Below are positions 2,493-53,818 of a DNA stretch of 64,000 nucleotides, piece by piece. The translations under genes were made by a program, and so were the position numbers. The notes below the pieces were generated by a model that was given only the letters and a program-made list of their open reading frames with translations, ran no database searches and was not told where the DNA came from. The stretch is from the sequence record PZ452582.1; one strand, written 5' to 3'. Within the stretch, counting starts at the first letter, position 1. Each line of letters starts with the position of its first letter. The stretch comes from a phage.

Positions 2493-2532
2493 TAGTAGTA
2501 TATTAAATCCACGAATTAAAACAGGAAATAAG

Positions 2533-2706
2533 ATGAAATCATATACTCAATTTTTAAATGAAGCGGTGTTAAATGAAGCATCTAGCACCGAAATTCAAGC
2601 TGTCGCAAAAGCAGCCATTGCAGCGGGTAAATATTCTTATAAAGATGCTTCTGATGAATCGCGATTCCAGTTCGCACGCGACATGAAAGCGGAAGGATTT
2701 ACGTGA
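2533..2706 (+). CDS. small protein (57 aa) with capsid-targeting-sequence-like N-terminus (candidate internal protein)
   Basis: N-terminus MKSYTQFLNEA resembles T4 internal-protein CTS MKTYQEFIAEA; SD agga; late promoter upstream. Confidence 0.5.
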   Translation: MKSYTQFLNEAVLNEASSTEIQAVAKAAIAAGKYSYKDASDESRFQFARDMKAEGFT

Positions 2707-2718
2707 AATGCAGTTAGT

Positions 2719-3006
2719 ATGGCCTGGAAAAGTTTAGTTGCTACTGGAGCTGCTTTTGCAAAGGCTTCAGGTAAACCTGCTCCTAAGGCTGACCCTAAAG
2801 CAGCACAAGAAAAAAATATTGCTAAAGGAATTATCTCTAGGTATGAAGCAATTCTTAAAGAACTTTTGATAATTAAGACCGAAGGCCAGAAACTTGCGCG
2901 AGCTCATAGTTTCAAAGATAACCCACATGCTCACTCTCTTGAGTATGTTGAAGACATCCAAAAAATTATTAAAGACCGCATTTGGTCTGCTAAACAAATC
3001 AAATAA
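2719..3006 (+). CDS. hypothetical protein (95 aa), Lys/Ala-rich N-terminus
   Basis: ATG ORF ending just before a terminator hairpin. Confidence 0.55.
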   Translation: MAWKSLVATGAAFAKASGKPAPKADPKAAQEKNIAKGIISRYEAILKELLIIKTEGQKLARAHSFKDNPHAHSLEYVEDIQKIIKDRIWSAKQIK

Positions 3007-3013
3007 CATTCTT

Positions 3014-3042
3014 AGCCCCGACCAAAAGGTTGGGGCTTTTTG
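3014..3042 (+). terminator. rho-independent terminator (second copy of the 2455 hairpin)
   Basis: agccccgacc-aaaa-ggttggggct plus TTTTT; near-identical to 2455-2482. Confidence 0.7.
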
Positions 3043-3133
3043 GTATCTAGGCCTTTCCGGGCCTCTCTAGACATCATTTAGTTTCTACCCTTTATAATAT
3101 ATTATCCTATCTTTTAATTGCCCCTCCCTGCCC

Positions 3134-3250
3134 TAGAATTCCCCAAAACTTTTTAAAAATTTTTTCACAAAACAGTTTACATCCTTACCCTTCCATGGTA
3201 CTATACAACTATCAACTACTGATACAGAAAACAACTTGGAGAATGAAATG
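3134..3250 (+). repeat. promoter-leader cassette copy A (PeSL-like), near-identical to 46217-46316
   Basis: Shared tagaattcc...ttttcacaaaac(a/t)gtttaca...ccatggtactatacaactatcaactactgatacag...ttggagaat(g/a)aaatg. Confidence 0.7.
3176..3204 (+). promoter_or_regulatory. early sigma70-type promoter (TTTACA-17-TACTAT, A/T-rich UP region)
   Basis: GTTTAC -35 motif typical of T4 early promoters; 17 bp spacer. Confidence 0.7.
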
Positions 3251-3511
3251 GATAATTACGGCGAACTGTTCAACTTCTTTATGAAATGTGTTTCAGAAGA
3301 TTTTGGTCGTACAGTGAATGATATTAAAGTTATCGGTCCTGATCATCCGATGTTTGAAACTTACGCAGTAATGGGTAATGAAGATGGTCAGTGGTATACT
3401 GTAAAGGTTGTGATTAACATGTTCACTGCTGAAGGTTATGTTAAACTGTCTTCTAAAGTTTACCATGATAACGATGAAATCGCAGAAGAATATTTCAATA
3501 ATATGAAATAA
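3248..3511 (+). CDS. hypothetical protein (87 aa)
   Basis: Track ORF starts at TTG 3236; ATG 3248 has SD GGAG 6 nt upstream. Confidence 0.6.
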   Translation: MDNYGELFNFFMKCVSEDFGRTVNDIKVIGPDHPMFETYAVMGNEDGQWYTVKVVINMFTAEGYVKLSSKVYHDNDEIAEEYFNNMK

Positions 3512-33582: not shown

Positions 33583-34785
33583 ATGAAAGTATGTATTTTT
33601 ATGGCTCGAGGTCTTGAAGGTTGTGGTGTAACTAAATTTTCTCTTGAGCAACGTGATTGGTTTATTAAGAATGGTCATGAAGTAACTTTGGTTTATGCTA
33701 AAGATAAATCATTTACTCGTAATTGCGCGCATGATTATAAATCATTTTCAATTCCGGTTTTATTGGCAAAAGAATATGATAAAACACTTAAGCTGGTAAA
33801 TGATTGTGATATTCTAATTATCAATTCAGTTCCTGCTACTTCGGTTGAAGAAGACACTATTAATAACTATAAAAAAATTATTGATAACATTAAACCTTCT
33901 GTTCGTGTTGTAGTTTATCAACATGACCATTCTTCTCTTTCTTTGCGCCGAAATTTGGGATTAGAAGAAACTGTTCGTCGAGCTGATGTTATTTTTAGCC
34001 ATTCTGATAATGGTGATTTTAATAAAGTTCTGATGAAAGAATGGTATCCTGAAACAGTTTCTCTGTTTGATGATATTGAAGAAGCACCGACAGTATATAA
34101 CTTTCAGCCTCCTATGGATATTGCGAAGGTTCGGTCAACCTACTGGAAAGATGTTTCTGAAATTAACATGAATATCAACCGTTGGATTGGTCGTACGACT
34201 ACATGGAAAGGTTTTTATCAGATGTTTGATTTTCATGAAAAACATCTTAAACCTGCAGGACTAAGTACTATTATGGAAGGTCTGGAACGTTCTCCAGCGT
34301 TCATTCCTATTAAAGAAAAAGGAATTCCATACGAGTATTATCGTCTTCATCAAGTAGACCAAATTAAAATTGCTCCTAATTTGCCAACGCAAATTCTTGA
34401 CCGTTATGTAAATAGCGAAATGCTTGAACGCATGAGTAAATCCGGTTTTGGTTATCAGCTGAGTAAGTTGGACAAAAAATATCTACAGCGTTCTTTAGAA
34501 TATACTCATCTCGAGCTTGGTGCATGCGGAACAATTCCGGTATTTTGGAAATCTACTGGCGAAAATTTAAAATTCCGTGTTGATAATACTCCTTTGACCT
34601 CGCATGATAGCGGTATCATTTGGTTTGATGAAAATGATATGGAATCAACATTTGAACGTATTAAAGAACTGTCATCTGACCGAACTCTTTATGACCGCGA
34701 ACGTGAAAAAGCTTATGAATTTTTGTATCAGCATCAAGATTCAAGCTTCTGCTTTAAAGAACAGTTTGACATTATTACAAAATAA
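33583..34785 (+). CDS. agt: DNA alpha-glucosyltransferase
   Basis: 400 aa, near-identical to recalled T4 Agt (M..CIFMARGLEGCGVTKFSLEQRDWFIKNGHEVTLVYAKDKSF...). Confidence 0.95.
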   Translation: MKVCIFMARGLEGCGVTKFSLEQRDWFIKNGHEVTLVYAKDKSFTRNCAHDYKSFSIPVLLAKEYDKTLKLVNDCDILIINSVPATSVEEDTINNYKKIIDNIKPSVRVVVYQHDHSSLSLRRNLGLEETVRRADVIFSHSDNGDFNKVLMKEWYPETVSLFDDIEEAPTVYNFQPPMDIAKVRSTYWKDVSEINMNINRWIGRTTTWKGFYQMFDFHEKHLKPAGLSTIMEGLERSPAFIPIKEKGIPYEYYRLHQVDQIKIAPNLPTQILDRYVNSEMLERMSKSGFGYQLSKLDKKYLQRSLEYTHLELGACGTIPVFWKSTGENLKFRVDNTPLTSHDSGIIWFDENDMESTFERIKELSSDRTLYDREREKAYEFLYQHQDSSFCFKEQFDIITK

Positions 34786-34824: not shown

Positions 34825-34965
34825 ATGATATTTCTTGGATATGTGATACTTTTTCTAGCGTTTTATCTGTTCACCAGAGCATGTTGGATTGGGTTCTTTA
34901 GCACTCCGGACGGATTTATTTCAATAATTTTATTTTGCATTTCAATGACGGTTCTTGATATATGA
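34825..34965 (+). CDS. small hydrophobic protein (46 aa)
   Basis: SD ggag; ATGA-coupled to gene 47; two hydrophobic stretches. Confidence 0.45.
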   Translation: MIFLGYVILFLAFYLFTRACWIGFFSTPDGFISIILFCISMTVLDI

Positions 34966-35981
34966 AAATTTTAAATTTAGGTGATTGGCATTTAGGTGTT
35001 AAAGCCGATGATGAGTGGGTTCAATCCATTCAGTTGGATGGAATTAAACAAGCAATAGAATATTCTAAGAAAAATGGAATTACTACATGGATTCAATACG
35101 GCGATATTTTTGATGTGCGAAAAGCAATCACACATAAAACTATGGAGTTCGCTCGTGAAATAGTTCAAATGCTTGATGATGCTGGTATTACCCTACATAC
35201 TGTTGTAGGAAACCATGATATGCACTTTAAAAATACTTTAACTCCAAATGCTTCTACTGAGCTTTTGGCTAAATATCCTAATGTTAAAGTATATGATAAG
35301 CCTACTACAGTAGATTTTGACGGATGTTTGATTGATTTAATTCCTTGGATGTGTGAAGAAAATACTGGTGAAATTCTTGAACATATTAAAACTTCATCCG
35401 CTTCTTTTTGTGTTGGTCACTGGGAACTGAATGGGTTTTATTTTTATAAAGGAATGAAATCTCACGGTCTTGAACCTGATTTCCTTAAGACTTATAAAGA
35501 GGTGTGGTCTGGTCACTTCCATACTATCTCTGAGGCTGCTAACGTCAGATATATTGGGACACCATGGACACTAACTGCAGGTGACGAGAATGACCCTCGT
35601 GGGTTCTGGATGTTTGATACAGAAACAGAACGAATGGAATTTATTCCAAACAATACTACCTGGCATCGTAGAATTCATTATCCATTTAAAGGAAAAATTG
35701 ACTATAAAGATTTTACAAATCTATCAGTACGTGTTATAGTAACTGAAGTAGACAAAAATCTAACGAAGTTCGAATCTGAACTAGAAAAAGTTGTGCATTC
35801 ATTACGAGTTGTGTCAAAAATTGATAACTCTGTCGAGTCAGATGACAGTGAAGAAGTTGAAGTTCAATCTCTTCAGACGTTAATGGAAGAATACATTAAT
35901 GCAATTCCAGACATCACTGATTCTGACCGTGAAGCACTTATTCAATATGCGAATCAGCTATATGTAGAGGCAACACAATGA
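34962..35981 (+). CDS. 47: recombination nuclease subunit gp47 (Mre11-like)
   Basis: 339 aa; phosphoesterase motifs GDWHLG, GDIFD, GNHD. Confidence 0.95.
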   Translation: MKILNLGDWHLGVKADDEWVQSIQLDGIKQAIEYSKKNGITTWIQYGDIFDVRKAITHKTMEFAREIVQMLDDAGITLHTVVGNHDMHFKNTLTPNASTELLAKYPNVKVYDKPTTVDFDGCLIDLIPWMCEENTGEILEHIKTSSASFCVGHWELNGFYFYKGMKSHGLEPDFLKTYKEVWSGHFHTISEAANVRYIGTPWTLTAGDENDPRGFWMFDTETERMEFIPNNTTWHRRIHYPFKGKIDYKDFTNLSVRVIVTEVDKNLTKFESELEKVVHSLRVVSKIDNSVESDDSEEVEVQSLQTLMEEYINAIPDITDSDREALIQYANQLYVEATQ

Positions 35982-36241
35982 CTTTTGATGAATTTAAAAA
36001 TGTTATGATGAGTCAGCATTTTGAATGCGAAGTAAAAGATGATATTGGTCATAAAGAAATTATTGAATATTGGTTTGAACCGCTAGAGGTTGAACATAAT
36101 TGTATTAAAAAGGTTACGGTCTGCACTGACTGGGCTGTATCCTTTAACTTCAACATTTTAGATAATGACACACCTAAATCATTGCGAGATATGGCCGTAT
36201 CTTGTATTAAGGATGCATACTGTGAAGTTTTCGACATTTGA
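35978..36241 (+). CDS. hypothetical protein (87 aa)
   Basis: ATGA overlap with gene 47. Confidence 0.5.
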   Translation: MTFDEFKNVMMSQHFECEVKDDIGHKEIIEYWFEPLEVEHNCIKKVTVCTDWAVSFNFNILDNDTPKSLRDMAVSCIKDAYCEVFDI

Positions 36242-36428
36242 CATTAATGATGAATTCATAGCAAACATTGATTATACCGAAGAAGATTCTAGATATGTTG
36301 GAATAATTTATATTACATCAAAAACAGCACAAGGCGTTGTTTGCATGGCTGAATTTGATGAATACTTTTTAGATTATGATGATATGATAGAATGGTCTAA
36401 AAGATACATTAAAAGGAATCTTTTGTGA
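36213..36428 (+). CDS. hypothetical protein (71 aa)
   Basis: 5' end shares about 30 nt with the start of the downstream HNH gene. Confidence 0.45.
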   Translation: MHTVKFSTFDINDEFIANIDYTEEDSRYVGIIYITSKTAQGVVCMAEFDEYFLDYDDMIEWSKRYIKRNLL

Positions 36429-37279
36429 AGAATTTTAAACTTGACATTAATGATGAATTTTTAATAAAGGAATTAGTTGAAAAATTAGCGTTGAGTGAAG
36501 AAGACGCCAAGTCTTACATTAATTTTATTTCTATGAATTCAACTGTTAAAACTCCAGGTAAAACGGAAGCACATCACGTGCTTCCTAAATCAATATTTCC
36601 TGAATATTTAAAATCTACATGGAATTTAGTTAATTTAAGTCATTTTAATCATTTTAAAGCACATTTCTTATTAGCAAAAGGTAAAAATGGAAAAATGCTA
36701 AATGCTTTAAATAGAATGATGTCAGGAAAAACATATAAAAATTTATCTTTAGCCGAAGTTGATTTAATAGCTGCTGAATATAGTTTTATAAAACAAGATG
36801 TAAGTGACACAATATCAAAAAGGCTTCAACAATATTATTCAAATCCGCAAAATAGAAATGCTGCTAGAGAAAGGGCATTAAAATATTTTTCAGTAGCAAA
36901 AAATAGGAAAGATAACAAAGAAAGATTAAATAATTTTAAAACAAAACAAAAAATTTCAATGGCTTCAAGGGAATGGTTTAATAACGAAGAAAATAAAATT
37001 AAACACCAAAAGGCTGTTCGTGCTGCTTTATCAAAACCTGAATATAAAATAGCTATATCAAATTCAGTAGCTGCTAGTTGGAAAAATCCGGAGATTAGAA
37101 AAGCTCATATAGCATCTCGACGAAAAGGCTATCATTGGGATAATAAAGATAAATTGTATGAATTGTGGATATCATATAATCGTCCTAAACATGTGATGTT
37201 TAGGAAAATGTTAGTTAAGAATGGATATCCAATAGAGGCTTCATTACAGGCTTTAGTTAAAGAATTTTCTTCATTGTGA
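36425..37279 (+). CDS. free-standing HNH homing endonuclease with NUMOD-like DNA-binding repeats
   Basis: HNH motif AHHVLPKS...NLVNLSHFNHFKAH; repeated IS.S..W motifs; GTG start overlapping upstream stop; AT-rich. Confidence 0.65.
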   Translation: MKNFKLDINDEFLIKELVEKLALSEEDAKSYINFISMNSTVKTPGKTEAHHVLPKSIFPEYLKSTWNLVNLSHFNHFKAHFLLAKGKNGKMLNALNRMMSGKTYKNLSLAEVDLIAAEYSFIKQDVSDTISKRLQQYYSNPQNRNAARERALKYFSVAKNRKDNKERLNNFKTKQKISMASREWFNNEENKIKHQKAVRAALSKPEYKIAISNSVAASWKNPEIRKAHIASRRKGYHWDNKDKLYELWISYNRPKHVMFRKMLVKNGYPIEASLQALVKEFSSL

Positions 37280-37294
37280 ACAATTGGATACAAA

Positions 37295-38977
37295 ATGAAA
37301 TCATTTAAACTTAATAGAGTAAAATATAAAAATATAATGTCAGTTGGTCAAAATGGAGTTGACATTCAATTAGATAAGGTTCAAAAAACTCTTATTACTG
37401 GACGAAATGGCGGTGGTAAGTCTACTATGTTAGAAGCCATCACATTTGGGCTTTTTGGCAAGCCATTTCGTGATGTAAAGAAAGGCCAATTAATAAACAG
37501 CACAAATAAGAAAGAACTTTTAGTTGAACTGTGGATGGAATATGATGAGAAAAAGTACTATATCAAAAGAGGACAAAAACCAAACGTTTTCGAAATCACC
37601 GTTAACGGTACACGTCTTAATGAATCTGCCAGCAGTAAAGATTTCCAAGCAGAATTTGAACAGCTTATCGGAATGTCATATGCCAGTTTCAAGCAGATTG
37701 TTGTCCTTGGTACAGCAGGGTATACCCCTTTCATGGGTTTGTCGACCCCTGCACGAAGAAAGCTTGTGGAAGACCTGCTTGAGGTAGGAACATTAGCTGA
37801 AATGGATAAGCTTAATAAAGCACTAATACGTGAATTAAATTCACAAAACCAAGTGCTTGATGTTAAAAAAGATAGTATTATCCAACAAATTAAAATATAT
37901 AATGATAATGTTGAACGCCAGAAAAAATTGTCTGGTGACAACCTTACTCGTCTTCAAAATATGTATGATGATTTGGCAAAAGAAGCTAGAACGCTAAAAT
38001 CAGAAATAGAAGAAGTTAATGAAAGATTAGTTAATATTGTTTTAGATGAAGACCCGACTGATGCATTTAATAAAATCGGTCAAGAAGCAGTTTTAATTAA
38101 ATCAAAAATTGACTCGTATAATAAAGTCATTAATATGTATCACGAAGGCGGATTATGCCCAACCTGCTTGTCACAATTAAGTTCAGGTGATAAAGTTGTT
38201 TCTAAAATTAAAGATAAAGTTTCTGAATGTACGCATTCGTTTGAACAGCTTTCAACACATCGTGATAATTTAAAAGTTCTTGTTGATGAATACCGAGATA
38301 ATATTAAAACCCAACAGTCGTTGGCAAATGATATTCGCAATAAAAAGCAATCTCTAATCACGACGGTAGATAAAGCTAAAAAAGTTAAAGCAGCTATAGA
38401 AAAAGCATCTTCTGAGTTTATTGACCATGCTGATGAAATAGCACTGCTTCAAGAAGAACTTGATAAAATTGTTAAGACAAAAACTAATTTAGTAATGGAA
38501 AAATACCACCGAGGAATTTTGACTGATATGCTCAAAGATTCTGGTATTAAAGGTGCTATTATTAAAAAGTACATTCCATTATTTAATAAGCAGATTAACC
38601 ATTATCTTAAAATAATGGAAGCGGATTATGTGTTTACATTAGATGAAGAATTTAATGAGACAATTAAATCCCGTGGTCGTGAAGATTTTAGTTATGCTTC
38701 ATTCAGTCAAGGTGAAAAAGCACGAATTGATATTGCTCTTTTATTTACTTGGCGTGATATTGCTGAAAAAGTTTCAGGTGTTAAAATAAACACACTAATT
38801 CTTGATGAAGTTTTTGATTCAGCGACCGATGTTGAAGGTGTAAAAGCTATTTCAACTATTTTAGATAGTTTAAAAAATACTAATGTTTTTGTTATTTCGC
38901 ATAGAGACCATGACCCACAAGCATATGGTCAGCACCTTCAAATGAAGAAAGTTGGTCGATTTACTGTAATGGTTTAA
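37295..38977 (+). CDS. 46: recombination ATPase gp46 (Rad50/SbcC-like)
   Basis: 560 aa; Walker A GRNGGGKST; zinc-hook CPTC; long coiled coil. Confidence 0.95.
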   Translation: MKSFKLNRVKYKNIMSVGQNGVDIQLDKVQKTLITGRNGGGKSTMLEAITFGLFGKPFRDVKKGQLINSTNKKELLVELWMEYDEKKYYIKRGQKPNVFEITVNGTRLNESASSKDFQAEFEQLIGMSYASFKQIVVLGTAGYTPFMGLSTPARRKLVEDLLEVGTLAEMDKLNKALIRELNSQNQVLDVKKDSIIQQIKIYNDNVERQKKLSGDNLTRLQNMYDDLAKEARTLKSEIEEVNERLVNIVLDEDPTDAFNKIGQEAVLIKSKIDSYNKVINMYHEGGLCPTCLSQLSSGDKVVSKIKDKVSECTHSFEQLSTHRDNLKVLVDEYRDNIKTQQSLANDIRNKKQSLITTVDKAKKVKAAIEKASSEFIDHADEIALLQEELDKIVKTKTNLVMEKYHRGILTDMLKDSGIKGAIIKKYIPLFNKQINHYLKIMEADYVFTLDEEFNETIKSRGREDFSYASFSQGEKARIDIALLFTWRDIAEKVSGVKINTLILDEVFDSATDVEGVKAISTILDSLKNTNVFVISHRDHDPQAYGQHLQMKKVGRFTVMV

Positions 38978-39230: not shown

Positions 39231-39620
39231 ATGACTAAAATTACTGTGAATTATACTGTTGATGTAAAAGATATTCAGCCAAAACACGTGCGTTCTGAAT
39301 CAAATCCACAAAACCAAAATAAAATTCGTCGAGCATGGGTTTTGTCTCTTTCTGATAACGCAATGGAAGTTATTCAGAACAAAATTAAATCTGCACCTGC
39401 TCGTCATGCGTATTATGAAGCTATCGATCGTGAAGTAAGTAATAAATGGATTGAACTAATGCGCAAACATACTACAGAATCCCTAAATGCCGGTGCTAAA
39501 TTTATTATGACTTCATGTGGTGAACGCCTTGAAGATGAATATTGCGGTAATGCAGATGAACGTCTAATTGTTGCTGCTCAAATTGTTGCCGAAACAATTG
39601 TGGCCGAGTTTAATAAATGA
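39231..39620 (+). CDS. rpbA: RNA polymerase-binding protein RpbA-like (129 aa)
   Basis: Size and position between 46 and 45 match T4 rpbA; no diagnostic motif. Confidence 0.5.
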
Positions 39621-40504
39621 ATTTAGTATATCTTATTAGCTTTCCAGAGCGGGAAGCTAAAAATATTTTTCCGTGTTATTATATAGGTTCAAAAATTAAC
39701 GCAATTTTCGATGGAACAAATATAATTGATTCAGCTGGAAAGATTTATACTGGAAGCGTGTCATCGAGTTATAGCGATGAATATTTTGAACTTATTAAAA
39801 CCACTAAATATACCGTCAAAATTTTAGCTGAAACTATATTAGATCCAAGAAAATTGGAGAGATTTTTTCAATTAAAAGTTAAAGCAAAAAGTAATATAAA
39901 ATATTTTAATAAAGCATACGCAGATGAAAATACTTTAATTGGTGCTAAAGGATATGGAACATATAAAAATGTTTTAACTGGAAAAATTGTAAAGCTTTCG
40001 CAATCTGAAATTACGCCTGAGTATGTCGGTATTCGTAAAGGTTACAAACATAGTTCTGAAGTAAAATACAAAATATCTAATTCAATGAAGAATCACTGGA
40101 CCGATGAGAAAAAGCTTAAACTCTCAAATAAGATGAAATTGAAATATCTTGATTGTAGTTATGCTAAAAAGTTTAGTGATATAATGAATTCAGAAAGTGT
40201 AAGATCAAAAATTTCTAAATCTCAAAAAGAATTATGGAATAATGCTGAAAGAAGACAGAGAGCTTCAATTCAAGCAACTGTTAGAAATAATTTACCGGAA
40301 TTCAAATCAAAATTTAGAAAATCTAAAGCTAGAGGAACTTGGATTGAACATGAAGATGAATTAAAATCTTTATGGCATGCTTACGGAAAACCAAGTTATA
40401 ATAAATTTCGTAAAATTGCAGTAGCTAATGGGTTTAACGACGAATCTTATCAGGGTGCTGTACGGTCCTGGTCTAACTATTATGTAAATAGGAAATTGAA
40501 ATGA
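39617..40504 (+). CDS. free-standing GIY-YIG homing endonuclease (Seg-like) with NUMOD-like repeats
   Basis: LVYLISF...(11 aa)...YYIGSK matches GIY-YIG; C-terminal domain resembles that of the HNH ORF at 36425. Confidence 0.65.
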
Positions 40505-52528: not shown

Positions 52529-52822
52529 ATGAAAAAATTTATCTTTGCTGCAATTTTTGCTTTAGCTTCTTGTGCTGCTCAGCCTGCTATGGCAGGTTAT
52601 GATAAAGATTTGTGTGAATGGTCTATGACTGCGGATCAGACTGAAGTTGAAACTCAAATTGAAGCGGATATTATGAATATCGTTGAGCGCGATCGTCCTG
52701 AAATGAAAGCTGAAGTGCAAAAACAGCTTAAGTCTGGTGGTGTAATGCAGTATAATTATGTTCTGTATTGCGATAAAAACTTTAATAACAAAAATATCGT
52801 AACCGAAATCACAGGTGAATAA
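52529..52822 (+). CDS. sp: spackle-like periplasmic protein (T4 sp / 61.3)
   Basis: 97 aa with signal peptide MKKFIFAAIFALASCAAQPAMA; matches T4 Sp size and position. Confidence 0.7.
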   Translation: MKKFIFAAIFALASCAAQPAMAGYDKDLCEWSMTADQTEVETQIEADIMNIVERDRPEMKAEVQKQLKSGGVMQYNYVLYCDKNFNNKNIVTEITGE

Positions 52823-53456
52823 TATGATTTATTATATGCACAAAAATCCACCGTTTAAATACGGTAAATTTCCTGATGCACAATGTTATAATATAACGCC
52901 TGATGAAAATAACCGTGGATATCTTATTGGCACAATTTTTGTAATTGTTAAAGATAACGAAATCGTTGCCTGGGCAGATTTTAAAGGTACAACACATGAT
53001 GTTAATCCGGTGCCTTTCACATATTACAATATAATGGATTTGGCATATGATTATAATTGGTTTAATCATGACACGTTGGCTCATATTGAAGGTGTAGGAT
53101 TTGACATCTCTTATTCTAGCTACTCATTGTGTCCTATGAGTCGGGCTCATAAAGAACCTGAATATTTTTCATTTAGGAAACGTGTAAACTTTAAACGCAA
53201 CACAGAGTATGTCGGTGGAATATTTGTTAAAGATAATCGAATTATTCGTATTAATTATCCTTTGAGCGTTAGTCAAAAAGATATTGATGTTGATTTAGAT
53301 TTCACTGAAAATAATATTAATCATATTGCTTCTGTGTATTTTGGTATCGATCACAAAATTGTAATATGTGGATATGAATTACCGTTTGAAGAACAGCCTA
53401 AAGTAAATGTTTCTATTGATGACCAAATTTTTAATGCTTTTATGAATAAAGGTTAA
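52815..53456 (+). CDS. T4 61.2-like protein (213 aa)
   Basis: Position and size match T4 61.2 (reported anti-DarT factor AdfA family, from memory). Confidence 0.5.
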   Translation: MNNMIYYMHKNPPFKYGKFPDAQCYNITPDENNRGYLIGTIFVIVKDNEIVAWADFKGTTHDVNPVPFTYYNIMDLAYDYNWFNHDTLAHIEGVGFDISYSSYSLCPMSRAHKEPEYFSFRKRVNFKRNTEYVGGIFVKDNRIIRINYPLSVSQKDIDVDLDFTENNINHIASVYFGIDHKIVICGYELPFEEQPKVNVSIDDQIFNAFMNKG

Positions 53457-53460
53457 TATG
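53409..53460 (+). repeat. direct repeat copy 1 (gene 3' end plus next start), repeated at 53767-53818
   Basis: tctattgatgaccaaatttttaatgcttttatgaata(a/g)aggttaatatg. Confidence 0.8.
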
Positions 53461-53814
53461 TATAGTTCTGAATTTTCATATTTAAAAATGGAAAAAATTT
53501 CATACGATTTTATAGATGAAAAGGTTTATTACAGTTTCCATGAACCACGTTTTAATAGTGAGGTTGGGTTTATTGTAGTAAAAGACAATTTTATTTTAAA
53601 AATATATTCAGCATTAAAGGATTTTCATTACGAAAATATTAACCTAAAATTTAATAAAGAAAACGTTCGTAATTGCGCAGTAACAATTACGGGAAATAAA
53701 GGTACATGTGTTATGCTATCTGATGAAATTAATGATTTGCTAAATGATGCAGAAAATATTACTGCACCATCTATTGATGACCAAATTTTTAATGCTTTTA
53801 TGAATAGAGGTTAA
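53458..53814 (+). CDS. T4 61.1-like protein (118 aa)
   Basis: C-terminal SIDDQIFNAFMNRG duplicates the tail of the upstream gene. Confidence 0.5.
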   Translation: MYSSEFSYLKMEKISYDFIDEKVYYSFHEPRFNSEVGFIVVKDNFILKIYSALKDFHYENINLKFNKENVRNCAVTITGNKGTCVMLSDEINDLLNDAENITAPSIDDQIFNAFMNRG

Positions 53815-53818
53815 TATG
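53767..53818 (+). repeat. direct repeat copy 2
   Basis: Near-identical to 53409-53460. Confidence 0.8.

Follow-up and report, generated by a model that had tools for sequence, protein, structure and literature searches.

A putative Mob-type HNH homing endonuclease gene inserted in the 5′ end of phage gene 46 appears to use the native gene 46 start

Results

Genes and features at the locus

The window analysed here is a 64-kb stretch of phage DNA (PZ452582.1), in which a 284-aa ORF is listed at 36425-37279 on the + strand. By homology, this ORF is a free-standing Mob-type HNH homing endonuclease gene (HEG) lying between 46.1 and gene 46. As a sequence-only reading of the window had noticed, the start codon of the HEG, GTG at 36425-27, overlaps the stop of 46.1 (TGA, 36426-28) in the context TTGTGAAG. 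The insertion upstream of gene 46 which that reading had proposed is borne out by the absence of the cassette from T4 and from about 85% of Tequatrovirus records. The features of the locus are as follows.

36222..36428, + strand: gene 46.1 (DUF5487, 68 aa, GTG start), intact; Pfam DUF5487 E = 2.3e-49, and phrog_2327
36238..36256, + strand: repeat copy A, TTGACATTAATGATGAATT, 46.1 codons 6-12 (FDINDEF), read as the source copy; repeat scan
36413..36442, + strand: native translation-initiation region of gene 46, now that of the HEG; SD AAGGAA at 36413-18, GTG at 36425 and six codons, GTGAAGAATTTTAAACTT
36441..36459, + strand: repeat copy B, HEG codons 6-12 (LDINDEF), at the left junction; repeat scan
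36443..37303, + strand: cassette inserted relative to T4; three-way T4 alignment, 15-phage junction table, and 72 HEG+ records covering 36400-37320
36563..36676, + strand: putative beta-beta-alpha metal motif, residues 47-84 (EAHHVLPKS...WNLVNLSHFNHFKAH); invariant residues and AF2 secondary structure
36565..36585, + strand: strong predicted RNA hairpin, GGAAGCAC-AUCAC-GUGCUUCC, within the HNH-motif codons; MFE -15.6 kcal/mol, z -4.8
37024..37050, + strand: MotA-box middle-promoter-like site inside the HEG, TGCTTTA-N12-TATAAA; pattern scan, consensus match only
37286..37308, + strand: relic of an ancestral HEG C-terminal tail (GGATACAAAATGAAATCATTTAA), now out of frame; compare Melville GGATATTAAATGAAAACTTTTAA, encoding ..ILNENF and a stop
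37295..38977, + strand: gene 46 (Rad50/SbcC-like, 560 aa), with a cassette-borne ATG at 37295 and the start ATGAAATCA
37357..37358, + strand: HEG-linked AG (gp46 V22), GA (I22) in T4-type HEG-less alleles; loci inspected

The open reading frame and its product

Profile searches matched the HEG protein to phrog_655 ('homing endonuclease', E = 7.8e-45) and to phrog_12434 ('HNH endonuclease', E = 4.4e-15), and tblastn aligned it with T4 mobD at 30% identity (residues 47-281, 83% of the query, E = 2e-11 to 3e-11) and with RB43 mobE (E = 2e-6). In total, 975 relatives of the protein were found at E <= 1e-3. The HNH motif named in the sequence-only reading is upheld by alignments of 51 and 54 relatives sharing 20-45% identity, in which the motif residues H50, H51, N67, H76 and H80, as well as P54, are invariant. 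Furthermore, strand 47-51, strand 68-72 and helix 73-84 follow one another in the same order in both AF2 models (pLDDT 90-95). The AF2 model of the 284-aa protein has a pLDDT of 94.7, with residues 1-10 unstructured. Fold searches with the protein found no HNH structure, Pfam and NCBIfam scans gave no match to HNH or NUMOD models, and neither the protein nor a 51-sequence profile matched any PDB entry by sequence.

The NUMOD-like repeats that had also been claimed stand for the relatives but not for the HEG protein itself: Pfam matches among the 51 relatives include NUMOD3 (16/51), I-HmuI_NUMOD-like (4/51) and NUMOD1 (in 2), and NUMOD profiles searched against the HEG protein gave no match at E <= 0.1. 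Over residues 106-232, helices of ~15 residues follow one another and repeat an S..(W/Y).N(P/E)..(R/K) pattern; this region is akin in kind to NUMOD without being a member of a profile. I-HmuI of SPO1 is an intron-encoded HNH nicking endonuclease with NUMOD modules. The window HEG is similar in design, with an N-terminal HNH motif and an extended helical DNA-binding region, but it is free-standing, and no sequence or structure match between it and I-HmuI or any PDB entry was detectable.

The DNA-binding half is far closer to the HEGs of phages F2 and Melville than to mob genes at other loci. A chimeric origin, with the HNH domain and the DNA-binding half taken from different mob lineages, was considered and rejected, the HNH domain being equally close (59-61%) to both groups. 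The closest T4 paralogue is MobD, which lies at a different locus (the nrdC.11/mobD.1 interval) and, at its 30% identity, is not an orthologue; T4 MobD has no known target (PMC2988022).

GenBank and RefSeq label the ORF 'homing endonuclease', and several GenBank records carry 'mobD' or 'MobD-like'. We found no published account of this locus in the literature, where reviews count mob-like HEGs in T2, T6 and RB51. As a member of the Mob family the HEG is uncharacterised, but it is already annotated, so its detection is not new.

Inside the HEG, the stem of the hairpin at 36565-36585 is followed by no U-tract. Paralogous mob genes of UFV-AREG1 and Klebsiella phage Roth78 have exactly the same stem, with a changed loop in Roth78, and the hairpin is absent from the F2 and Melville HEGs. 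[quoted passage not shown] A scan of sigma-70 promoters and terminators returned background level only.

Boundaries of the inserted cassette

Comparison with T4 bounded the cassette at 36443-37303. Through 36442 the sequence is the same as the T4 46.1/46 junction (T4 alignment and junction table of 15 phages), and about 460 HEG-less records match at 100% over 36400-36441/2, with none matching beyond. The insertion point lies after gene 46 codon 6, with the left junction between 36442 and 36443. The GenBank M10160 entry for gene 46 reads 'g46 (gtg start codon)', the family-conserved HEG residues 13-36 are preceded by no in-frame start other than GTG 36425, and HEG codons 1-6 are gene 46 codons, not HEG-family residues. 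Judged by these alignments, the HEG opens with the native gene 46 start, from which it has its GTG, its ribosome-binding site and its first six codons (GTGAAGAATTTTAAACTT).

The cassette runs from a 46.1-derived patch through the HEG body, its stop and a 15-nt spacer to a new gene 46 start, ATGAAATCA. The HEG stop is at 37277-79, gene 46 restarts 15 nt later behind a weak SD (GGA at 37286-88), and from TTTAAACTT (37304) onward gene 46 is T4-type. RB69 gene 46 begins ATGAAATCATTTAAA, and the replacement start ATGAAATCA is identical to the RB69-type. The gp46 protein is altered at two positions only, N3S and the linked I22V. By the same comparison, a diverged second copy of the first gene 46 codons forms the right end of the cassette.

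The sequence-only reading had taken the duplicated segment around the insert to be the 5′ end of the upstream ORF. The T4 alignment contradicts this and identifies the true duplication flanking the insert as gene 46's own 5′ end. A transposon-like target-site duplication was examined and rejected, the flanking copies of the first 18 nt of gene 46 being identical at 13/18 positions, with only the last 9 exact. The right flanking copy matches the RB69-type allele; we read it as a donor-borne gene start and not as a duplication made on insertion.

The 19-nt repeat and gene 46.1

The DUF5487 and phrog_2327 matches of the upstream gene both begin at residue 4 of the 71-aa ORF, the T4 annotation of 46.1 gives the same 207-nt gene, and phage KIT03 has ATG at the 46.1 start position. 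The repeat described from the sequence as some 30 nt encoding DINDEF is real and in frame, with an exact length of 19 nt. The copy assigned there to the 5′ end of a 71-aa ORF at 36213 is 46.1 codons 6-12; by its family profile, the gene itself starts at GTG 36222 (68 aa) and not at the ATG at 36213. In the 64-kb window TTGACATTAATGATGAATT occurs exactly twice, both times on the + strand, in frame and in the same codon register. Similarity around the 19-mer reaches 45 nt at 78% identity (36221-65 vs 36424-68), and within it TGTGAAG pre-exists in HEG-less T4, between the 46.1 and gene 46 starts.

None of 200 Markov-1 simulated 64-kb sequences contained an exact 19-mer direct repeat within 500 nt, and the number of matches to the 19-mer expected with up to 3 mismatches is 0.16; the repeat is not due to chance. 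As F6, I8 and D10 are invariant in the 46.1 homologues of RB69 and KMB17, we take the 19-nt segment to be native to 46.1, and 46.1 to be the source. Copy B is present in T6, RB68, KIT03 and BMB16, and in T2 with one C>T change. In both sequence and codon register, the 17-19 nt that lie immediately within the left junction reproduce T4-type 46.1 codons 6/7-12. The 19-mer is most likely a footprint of insertion or recombination, as had been suggested, but in the form of a patch inside the left junction and not of a flanking target duplication.

Distribution and polymorphism among Tequatrovirus

Of 519 Tequatrovirus records, about 72 contain the cassette, its junctions the same in all of them, and the HEG+ flanks are 98-100% identical to those of HEG-less phages. 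HEG-less alleles include the T4-type (about 65 records, at least 99% identical to T4) and the AR1-type (about 366). Such a presence/absence polymorphism at one precise site of otherwise near-identical genomes, between conserved flanking genes, is the pattern expected of a free-standing homing endonuclease gene. Most HEG copies are intact at an identity of at least 99% (53 records), copies in T2, RB51 and RB68 are frameshifted, and the haplotypes flanking the HEG are mosaic within 1.5 kb among HEG+ phages.

The AG dinucleotide at 37357-37358 is found at 7/7 HEG+ and 0/6 HEG-less loci inspected, a small sample with which the identity bands agree. A hypervariable RB69-like patch occupies gene 46 nt 18-64 in the ~366 HEG-less records, or about 70% of Tequatroviruses. 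HEG+ and T4-type HEG-less genomes do not differ over the 47-nt stretch of gene 46 from the junction to the linked AG. This counts against the explanation proposed below, since a target in that stretch would leave self-immunity unaccounted for.

Related cassettes in F2 and Melville

The MobD-like HEGs of E. coli phage F2 and of Melville, a Salmonella phage (Gelderlandvirus), are 44% identical to the window HEG and adjoin gene 46, in the gene order gp47, HEG, gp46 in Melville and 46.2, HEG, gp46 in F2. They share the right junction seen in the window, TTTAAA of gene 46 codons 4-5, and like the window HEG they use an initiation codon borrowed from upstream. The stop of each HEG falls inside gene 46 codons 4-5, giving a 14-nt overlap; as the C-terminal end of the HEG thus reaches into the start of gene 46 in these phages, we read 37286-37308 in the window as a relic of the tail.

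The left sides differ. The F2 HEG opens with RB69-type 46.1 codons 1-7 (MTKTDYE), to which it is fused, and the remainder of 46.1 is missing; the Melville HEG directly follows gp47. In the window, the HEG follows an intact 46.1, its leader combines gene 46 codons 1-6 with 46.1 codons 7-12, and its tail is truncated, unlike those of F2 and Melville. No HEG-less Gelderlandviruses were evident in the search made to define the Melville junction, and the HEG seems fixed in Gelderlandvirus.

Discussion

T4 MobE is a free-standing HNH homing endonuclease encoded between nrdA and nrdB (Wilson & Edgell 2009, PMC2790892). Its gene is promoterless, has a start overlapping the upstream stop and contains an internal hairpin, and the enzyme nicks the 5′ end of the downstream gene, with immunity via local polymorphism (PMC2790892). 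The window HEG belongs to the same Mob family by homology, and the two are alike in being promoterless and RBS-less, with a start overlapping an upstream stop, and in having a strong hairpin within the coding region, which in the window has no U-tract. By analogy with MobE, the likely target of the window HEG would be the 5′ end of the conserved downstream gene, and the linked local polymorphism probably confers self-immunity. MobE differs in lying between genes, whereas the window HEG occupies the start codon and six codons of the downstream gene and supplies a substitute start. Nicking has been shown for MobE and is predicted for the window HEG.

We consider it probable that a promoter-less, RBS-less Mob-type cassette (36443-37303) sits inside the 5′ end of gene 46 and arose and operates in the following way. 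The HEG would be expressed via the SD AAGGAA, the GTG and the six codons of gene 46, with TGTGA as a stop/start of the translational-coupling arrangement, and gene 46 would continue from the donor-borne replacement start ATGAAATCA. The cassette or its immediate ancestor would once have formed a fusion with the 5′ end of 46.1, an arrangement found today in F2. Double-strand-break repair, in register and either homeologous or microhomology-mediated, would later have linked it to the start of gene 46 through the similar start regions TGTGAAGAATTTTAAACTT and TGTGAAGTTTTCGACATTT (13/19 identical), with an intact 46.1 retained.

Whether the 19-mer is the recombination scar of a 46.1-fused cassette joined to the gene 46 start is, in our estimate, evenly balanced. 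This part of the proposal draws on the fusion of the F2 HEG to 46.1 codons 1-7, on the non-chance, in-register repeat and on the microhomology-resolved one-sided homing of T4; the independent drift of the 19-mer copies, with variants in T2, BMB16 and ACG-C40, counts against it. In T4 one-sided homing, illegitimate double-strand-break repair gives microhomology junctions, and duplicated recipient sequence when homology is one-sided (Parker, Belisle & Belfort 1999, as summarised in PMC2988022). One-sided homing fits the window in that the right junction in gene 46 is conserved and the left junctions are lineage-specific. The system in that summary is an experimental intron, and the window event is a reconstruction from sequence alone.

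We infer cleavage and homing by the HEG from these comparisons, the indirect hints being the linked AG and the hypervariable patch of HEG-less records. It is rather likely that the intact copies are active and nick or cut gene 46 of HEG-less T4-type alleles close to its first ~70 nt, and spread would then occur by recombination-dependent repair in mixed infections. That the HEG is instead a decaying or domesticated remnant, spread only by ordinary T-even recombination, seems unlikely to us. Frameshifts in T2, RB51 and RB68 and the missing Pfam HNH match would suit a remnant, as would the high general mosaicism and the identical junctions everywhere, which point to a single insertion. However, most copies remain intact, all motif residues are kept in a confidently folded model, and a linked flanking polymorphism with a hypervariable patch beginning at the exact insertion point typifies active conflicts between an HEG and its target.

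Several other accounts of the left junction and the repeat were weighed. The cassette may have inserted directly after gene 46 codon 6, the 19-mer being added by template switch or short-patch conversion from the 46.1 start 203 nt upstream, which we regard as possible but on the unlikely side. A chimeric 218-nt query (46.1 5′ end plus HEG) was compared with 50,697 phage records. Every match listed fell into two pieces separated by 421 nt, and no T4-type 46.1(1-12)::HEG fusion intermediate was among them, in keeping with direct insertion. IMG/VR exact-pattern scans gave 0 matches for the fusion junction and also 0 for the positive control, the window-type junction, and so carry no weight either way. 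The 46.1 and gene 46 starts are alike enough to mis-pair (TGTGAAG plus 6/12), and microhomology use is known for T4 repair. Against direct insertion, F2 shows that fusion to the 46.1 5′ end occurs in the same HEG family, and a template switch leaves unaccounted for why the patch ends at the conserved HEG core (about residue 13). We hold it quite improbable that the HEG+ state is ancestral and the T4-type lost the cassette by deletion between the direct repeats TTTAAACTT (36434-42 and 37304-12). Recombination of these 9-nt exact repeats would indeed give GTGAAGAATTTTAAACTTAATAGAG, the T4 sequence, and the HEG is decaying in T2, RB51 and RB68. Yet the HEG-less 46.1/46 stop/start overlap is found in other genera (RB69, KMB17, RZ), the first six codons of the HEG belong to gene 46 and not to the HEG family, and AG is absent from all T4-type HEG-less alleles inspected, 65 records being at least 99% identical to T4.

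The repeat could also be a functional element (an operator for a translational repressor, an RNA structure needed at GTG-coupled starts, or part of the endonuclease's recognition or immunity site) rather than a scar, given that it lies equally far from two GTG starts, each overlapping the stop codon before it, and is conserved in most HEG+ phages. We judge this very improbable: T4 gene 46 uses the same initiation region without the 19-mer, both copies tolerate substitutions (GATATT in T2; AAC in BMB16 and ACG-C40), the window holds no further copy, and the intact copy in the HEG+ genome's own 46.1 speaks against a cleavage site. A compositional coincidence is the least credible account; the genome is AT-rich and short two-copy repeats are common in it, several at 75-80%, but the simulations, the mismatch expectation and the shared frame and codon register leave it extremely improbable.

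More speculatively, in a reading that we find rather unlikely, the left junction may record the break itself, made by the endonuclease at or near codon 6/7 of T4-type gene 46. Here a 3′ end ...TGTGAAGAATTTTAAACTT would have paired with the 46.1-derived leader of a donor carrying the 46.1::HEG fusion, at the wrong place but in the right register, and this misplaced annealing would have yielded an allele that retains 46.1. If this is true, the gene 46 nt 18-64 patch would be a resistance allele and the AG at nt 63-64 a self-immunity allele, the two sides of a conflict still under way over the start of this essential Rad50-like gene.

For mapping the target of a Mob enzyme, so far achieved for MobE only, the first 70 nt of gene 46 offer substrates in their T4-type, AR1-type and HEG+ forms. 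The element is ordinary in kind, but its insertion scar is unusually readable. Taken together, the locus would provide a base-pair-resolved case of a promoter-less, RBS-less selfish gene expressed via the start codon and coupling signals of a host gene, where the essential host gene would survive through a donor-borne replacement start. Among the phages compared, the left junctions appear to have been improvised in each lineage, with the right junction in gene 46 fixed.

The inserted reading frame is a homing endonuclease gene

The window is a genome segment of a T2/T6-like Tequatrovirus, in which the genes follow the order a-gt, 47.1, gene 47, 46.2, 46.1, the ORF under study, gene 46, 45.2, rpbA, a second endonuclease-like ORF and gene 45. 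Over the interval under study, Shigella phage SHFML-26 is 100% identical, and T6, PP01, ECML-134 and others are about 99% identical.

33583-34785, a-gt
34962-35981, gene 47
35978-36241, 46.2
36222, GTG start of 46.1 (68 aa; DUF5487, E 2e-49), placed by family profiles and the T4 annotation
36425-37279, + strand, 284-aa homing endonuclease gene (HEG), stop at 37277-79
15-nt spacer between the HEG stop and gene 46, with a weak GGA
37295, replacement gene 46 start, ATGAAATCA
37295-38977, gene 46

The sequence-only reading had reported this 284-aa ORF, with a GTG overlapping the TGA of the upstream ORF, and both observations are borne out. That upstream ORF is T4 gene 46.1; the ATG at 36213 proposed as its start gives way to GTG 36222, which profiles and T4 annotation support and where KIT03 has an ATG.

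The 284-aa ORF matches PHROG 655 ‘homing endonuclease’ (E 7.8e-45) and aligns with T4 MobD at 30% identity over 83% of its length; an exhaustive search found 975 relatives at E<=1e-3. When 51 and 54 relatives were aligned, Y31, H50, H51, P54, N67, H76 and H80 proved invariant, within EAHHVLPKS...WNLVNLSHFNHFKAH. AlphaFold models (pLDDT 94.7 for the full length, 90.4 for the N-domain) place the invariant residues on a unit of strand 47-51, strand 68-72 and helix 73-84. Next come many short helices in succession, then a C-terminal domain; residues 1-10 are unstructured. Pfam and NCBIfam scans gave no match for the protein itself, while among 51 relatives Pfam NUMOD3 matches 16, I-HmuI_NUMOD-like 4, and HNH models 3, 2 and 2. 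PDB sequence and fold searches found no HNH structure, so the assignment as a putative Mob-type HNH endonuclease rests on homology and motif. The gene is an uncharacterised yet already annotated Mob-type homing endonuclease gene.

The insertion captured the start of gene 46

In T4, which has no HEG here, the GTG start of gene 46 overlaps the 46.1 stop (...AAAAGGAATCTTTTGTGAAGAATTTTAAACTTAATAGAGTAAAATAT...), and GenBank M10160 carries the annotation ‘g46 (gtg start codon)’. In alignment, the window equals T4 through GTGAAGAATTTTAAACTT (to 36442) and diverges after that; in about 460 HEG-less Tequatrovirus records a 100% match covers 36400-36441/2 and breaks off there. The HEG ORF thus uses gene 46’s own Shine-Dalgarno sequence (AAGGAA, 36413-18), GTG and first six codons. 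T4 homology picks up again at TTTAAACTTAATAGAG (37304), so the inserted cassette spans 36443-37303. The replacement start agrees at every nucleotide with the one that RB69 gene 46 has, ATGAAATCATTTAAA, and gp46 keeps 560 aa as in T4, with N3S and I22V as the differences.

The duplication flanking the cassette is therefore the 5′ end of gene 46 (13/18 identical, the last 9 exactly). The sequence-only reading was right that an HNH-type HEG lies upstream of gene 46 and that it contains a 46.1-like copy, and it missed the gene 46 duplication.

37024-37050, + strand, exact MotA-box-like middle-promoter consensus (TGCTTTA, 12-nt spacer, TATAAA) inside the HEG

This site precedes the replacement start by about 245 nt and, as a consensus match only, could restore middle-mode transcription of gene 46.

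HEGs with 44% identity to the window HEG adjoin gene 46 upstream in Salmonella phage Melville (Gelderlandvirus; gp47, HEG, gp46) and E. coli phage F2 (46.2, HEG, gp46). In both, the HEG stop lies within gene 46 codons 4-5 (TTTAAA), an overlap of 14 nt, and an out-of-frame relic of this tail is kept in the window (GGATACAAAATGAAATCATTTAA vs Melville GGATATTAAATGAAAACTTTTAA). Because the ancestral HEG tail overlapped the gene 46 start, the cassette bears its own version of the first gene 46 codons. The F2 ORF opens with RB69-type 46.1 codons 1-7 (MTKTDYE), the remainder of 46.1 being absent. The right junction is thus constant across lineages and the left was improvised in each. The HNH domain of the window HEG is equally similar to the F2/Melville HEGs and to mob genes at other loci, whereas residues 106-284, the DNA-binding half, are far closer to F2/Melville, as would fit a target in the gene 46 area that these HEGs have in common.

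Loss of the cassette is mechanistically possible, since deletion between the flanking TTTAAACTT repeats would regenerate the T4 sequence. However, other genera show overlapping 46.1/46 without an HEG, the HEG leader is made of gene 46 codons, and the AG marker of cassette-bearing genomes is missing from T4-type HEG-less alleles; these points favour insertion as the primary event.

A 19-nt repeat as a proposed scar of recombination

The repeat noted between the starts of 46.1 and the HEG is real: TTGACATTAATGATGAATT occurs exactly twice in the 64 kb (36238-56 and 36441-59), both copies in frame at codons 6-12 of neighbouring ORFs, and none of 200 Markov-1 simulations of the window gave an exact 19-mer direct repeat within 500 nt. 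Similarity reaches 45 nt at 78% identity. F6, I8 and D10 are kept in the 46.1 homologues of RB69 and KMB17 (FDINDEF, FSIGDGY, FNIGDGW), so the 19-mer belongs originally to 46.1, and the copy in the HEG is derived. As the HEG copy is nucleotide-identical to T4-type 46.1, copying took place in a Tequatrovirus background.

The HEG copy sits immediately inside the left junction, shares the codon register of the 46.1 copy, and stops near residue 12-13, at the beginning of the HEG core that the family conserves. Our preferred reading is that it is the scar of a 46.1::HEG leader joined to the gene 46 start. An ancestral Tequatrovirus cassette would have been fused to 46.1 codons 1-12, by analogy with F2; a HEG-less genome would then have contributed its gene 46 start, linked to this leader by an in-register homeologous or microhomology join, and the resulting allele would have retained an intact 46.1. 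In T4, 46.1 and gene 46 already begin alike (TGTGAAGTTTTCGACATTT vs TGTGAAGAATTTTAAACTT, 13/19), and one-sided T4 homing resolved at microhomologies is documented (according to PMC2988022, citing Parker et al. 1999). Direct copying from 46.1, by template switch or short-patch conversion, is a serious rival, favoured by the fact that a chimeric query against 50,697 phage records found no 46.1(1-12)::HEG fusion intermediate among the matches listed. A functional element is unlikely, because T4 uses the same initiation region and lacks the 19-mer there, substitutions are tolerated in each copy, and the pattern is found nowhere else in the window.

53412-53460 and 53770-53818, + strand, the window’s only other local exact repeat of at least 19 nt

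This 49-nt direct repeat (98% identical) covers the final 15 codons (SIDDQIFNAFMN[K/R]G) of two adjacent ORFs (52815-53456 and 53458-53814) upstream of primase gene 61, together with the stop and the start that follows. The pair has the look of tandem paralogues or of a gene end that was duplicated.

Distribution of the cassette and candidate alleles

Among about 518 Tequatrovirus records, about 72 carry the cassette, with the same junctions in all; the HEG-less ones include about 65 with a T4-type allele (at least 99% identity) and about 366 with an ‘AR1-type’ allele (AR1, RB27, HP3 type). The AR1-type allele has 13-15 substitutions restricted to gene 46 nt 18-64 (window 37312-37358; loci L011, L012 and L013) and coding for RB69-like residues (RYQ...GGNP), in genomes otherwise nearly identical to T4; outside the patch identity is about 99%. 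The left edge of the patch coincides with the HEG insertion point and its right edge with a HEG-linked dinucleotide; the patch may be a resistant allele of the target or the trace of an old co-conversion. In 7/7 cassette-bearing loci inspected the downstream flank is T4-type and carries this linked change, GGGATT to GGAGTT at 37357-58, which is absent in T4, ACG-C40 and PST. Flanking haplotypes of cassette-bearing phages are mosaic within 1.5 kb. Frameshifted copies in T2 (2526-3378 of locus L007; C>T in its 19-mer), RB68 (2526-3379 of locus L008) and RB51 (H53) are decaying versions of one insertion.

MobE is promoterless, with a start overlapping the nrdA stop and an internal hairpin terminator; it nicks nt 122-126 of nrdB, and local polymorphism keeps it from cutting its own genome (PMC2790892). 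The population and flanking-polymorphism patterns of the window HEG resemble this system, and from the sequence we infer its cleavage, target and homing.

36565-36585, + strand, perfect 8-9-bp hairpin GGAAGCAC-AUCAC-GUGCUUCC within the HNH-motif codons

The hairpin (-15.6 kcal/mol, z -4.8), unlike the mobE terminator, has no following U-tract. Its stem is unchanged in mob paralogues at other loci, in UFV-AREG1 (after nrdD) and Klebsiella phage Roth78, the latter with synonymous loop changes, and it is missing from the F2 and Melville HEGs.

Further endonuclease genes lie nearby.

39617-40504, + strand, free-standing 295-aa Seg-like (GIY-YIG-type) ORF between rpbA and gene 45
RB68 (L008 5080-5793) and F2 (locus L006 4976-5692), minus strand, annotated antisense HEG directly downstream of gene 46; not in the window

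The Seg-like ORF overlaps its neighbours at both ends, with its ATG on the rpbA stop and its stop codon on the start of gene 45; about 25 phage records have it at >=95% identity, and T4 and T6 lack it. Its N-terminus is about 40% identical to SegG, and the C-terminal ~200 aa show homology to the Mob-like HEG (26% identity, E 9e-11), so that the two combine different nuclease heads with a common DNA-binding module. With the HEGs on both sides of gene 46 and the Seg-like gene, the 47-46-45 region is a HEG hotspot.

What makes the locus interesting is how its junctions are built: the HEG has taken over a start codon, the donor supplied the essential gene 46 with a substitute start, a formerly overlapping tail persists as a relic, and the proposed scar derives from 46.1. 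The locus also supplies testable candidate alleles for target, immunity and resistance.
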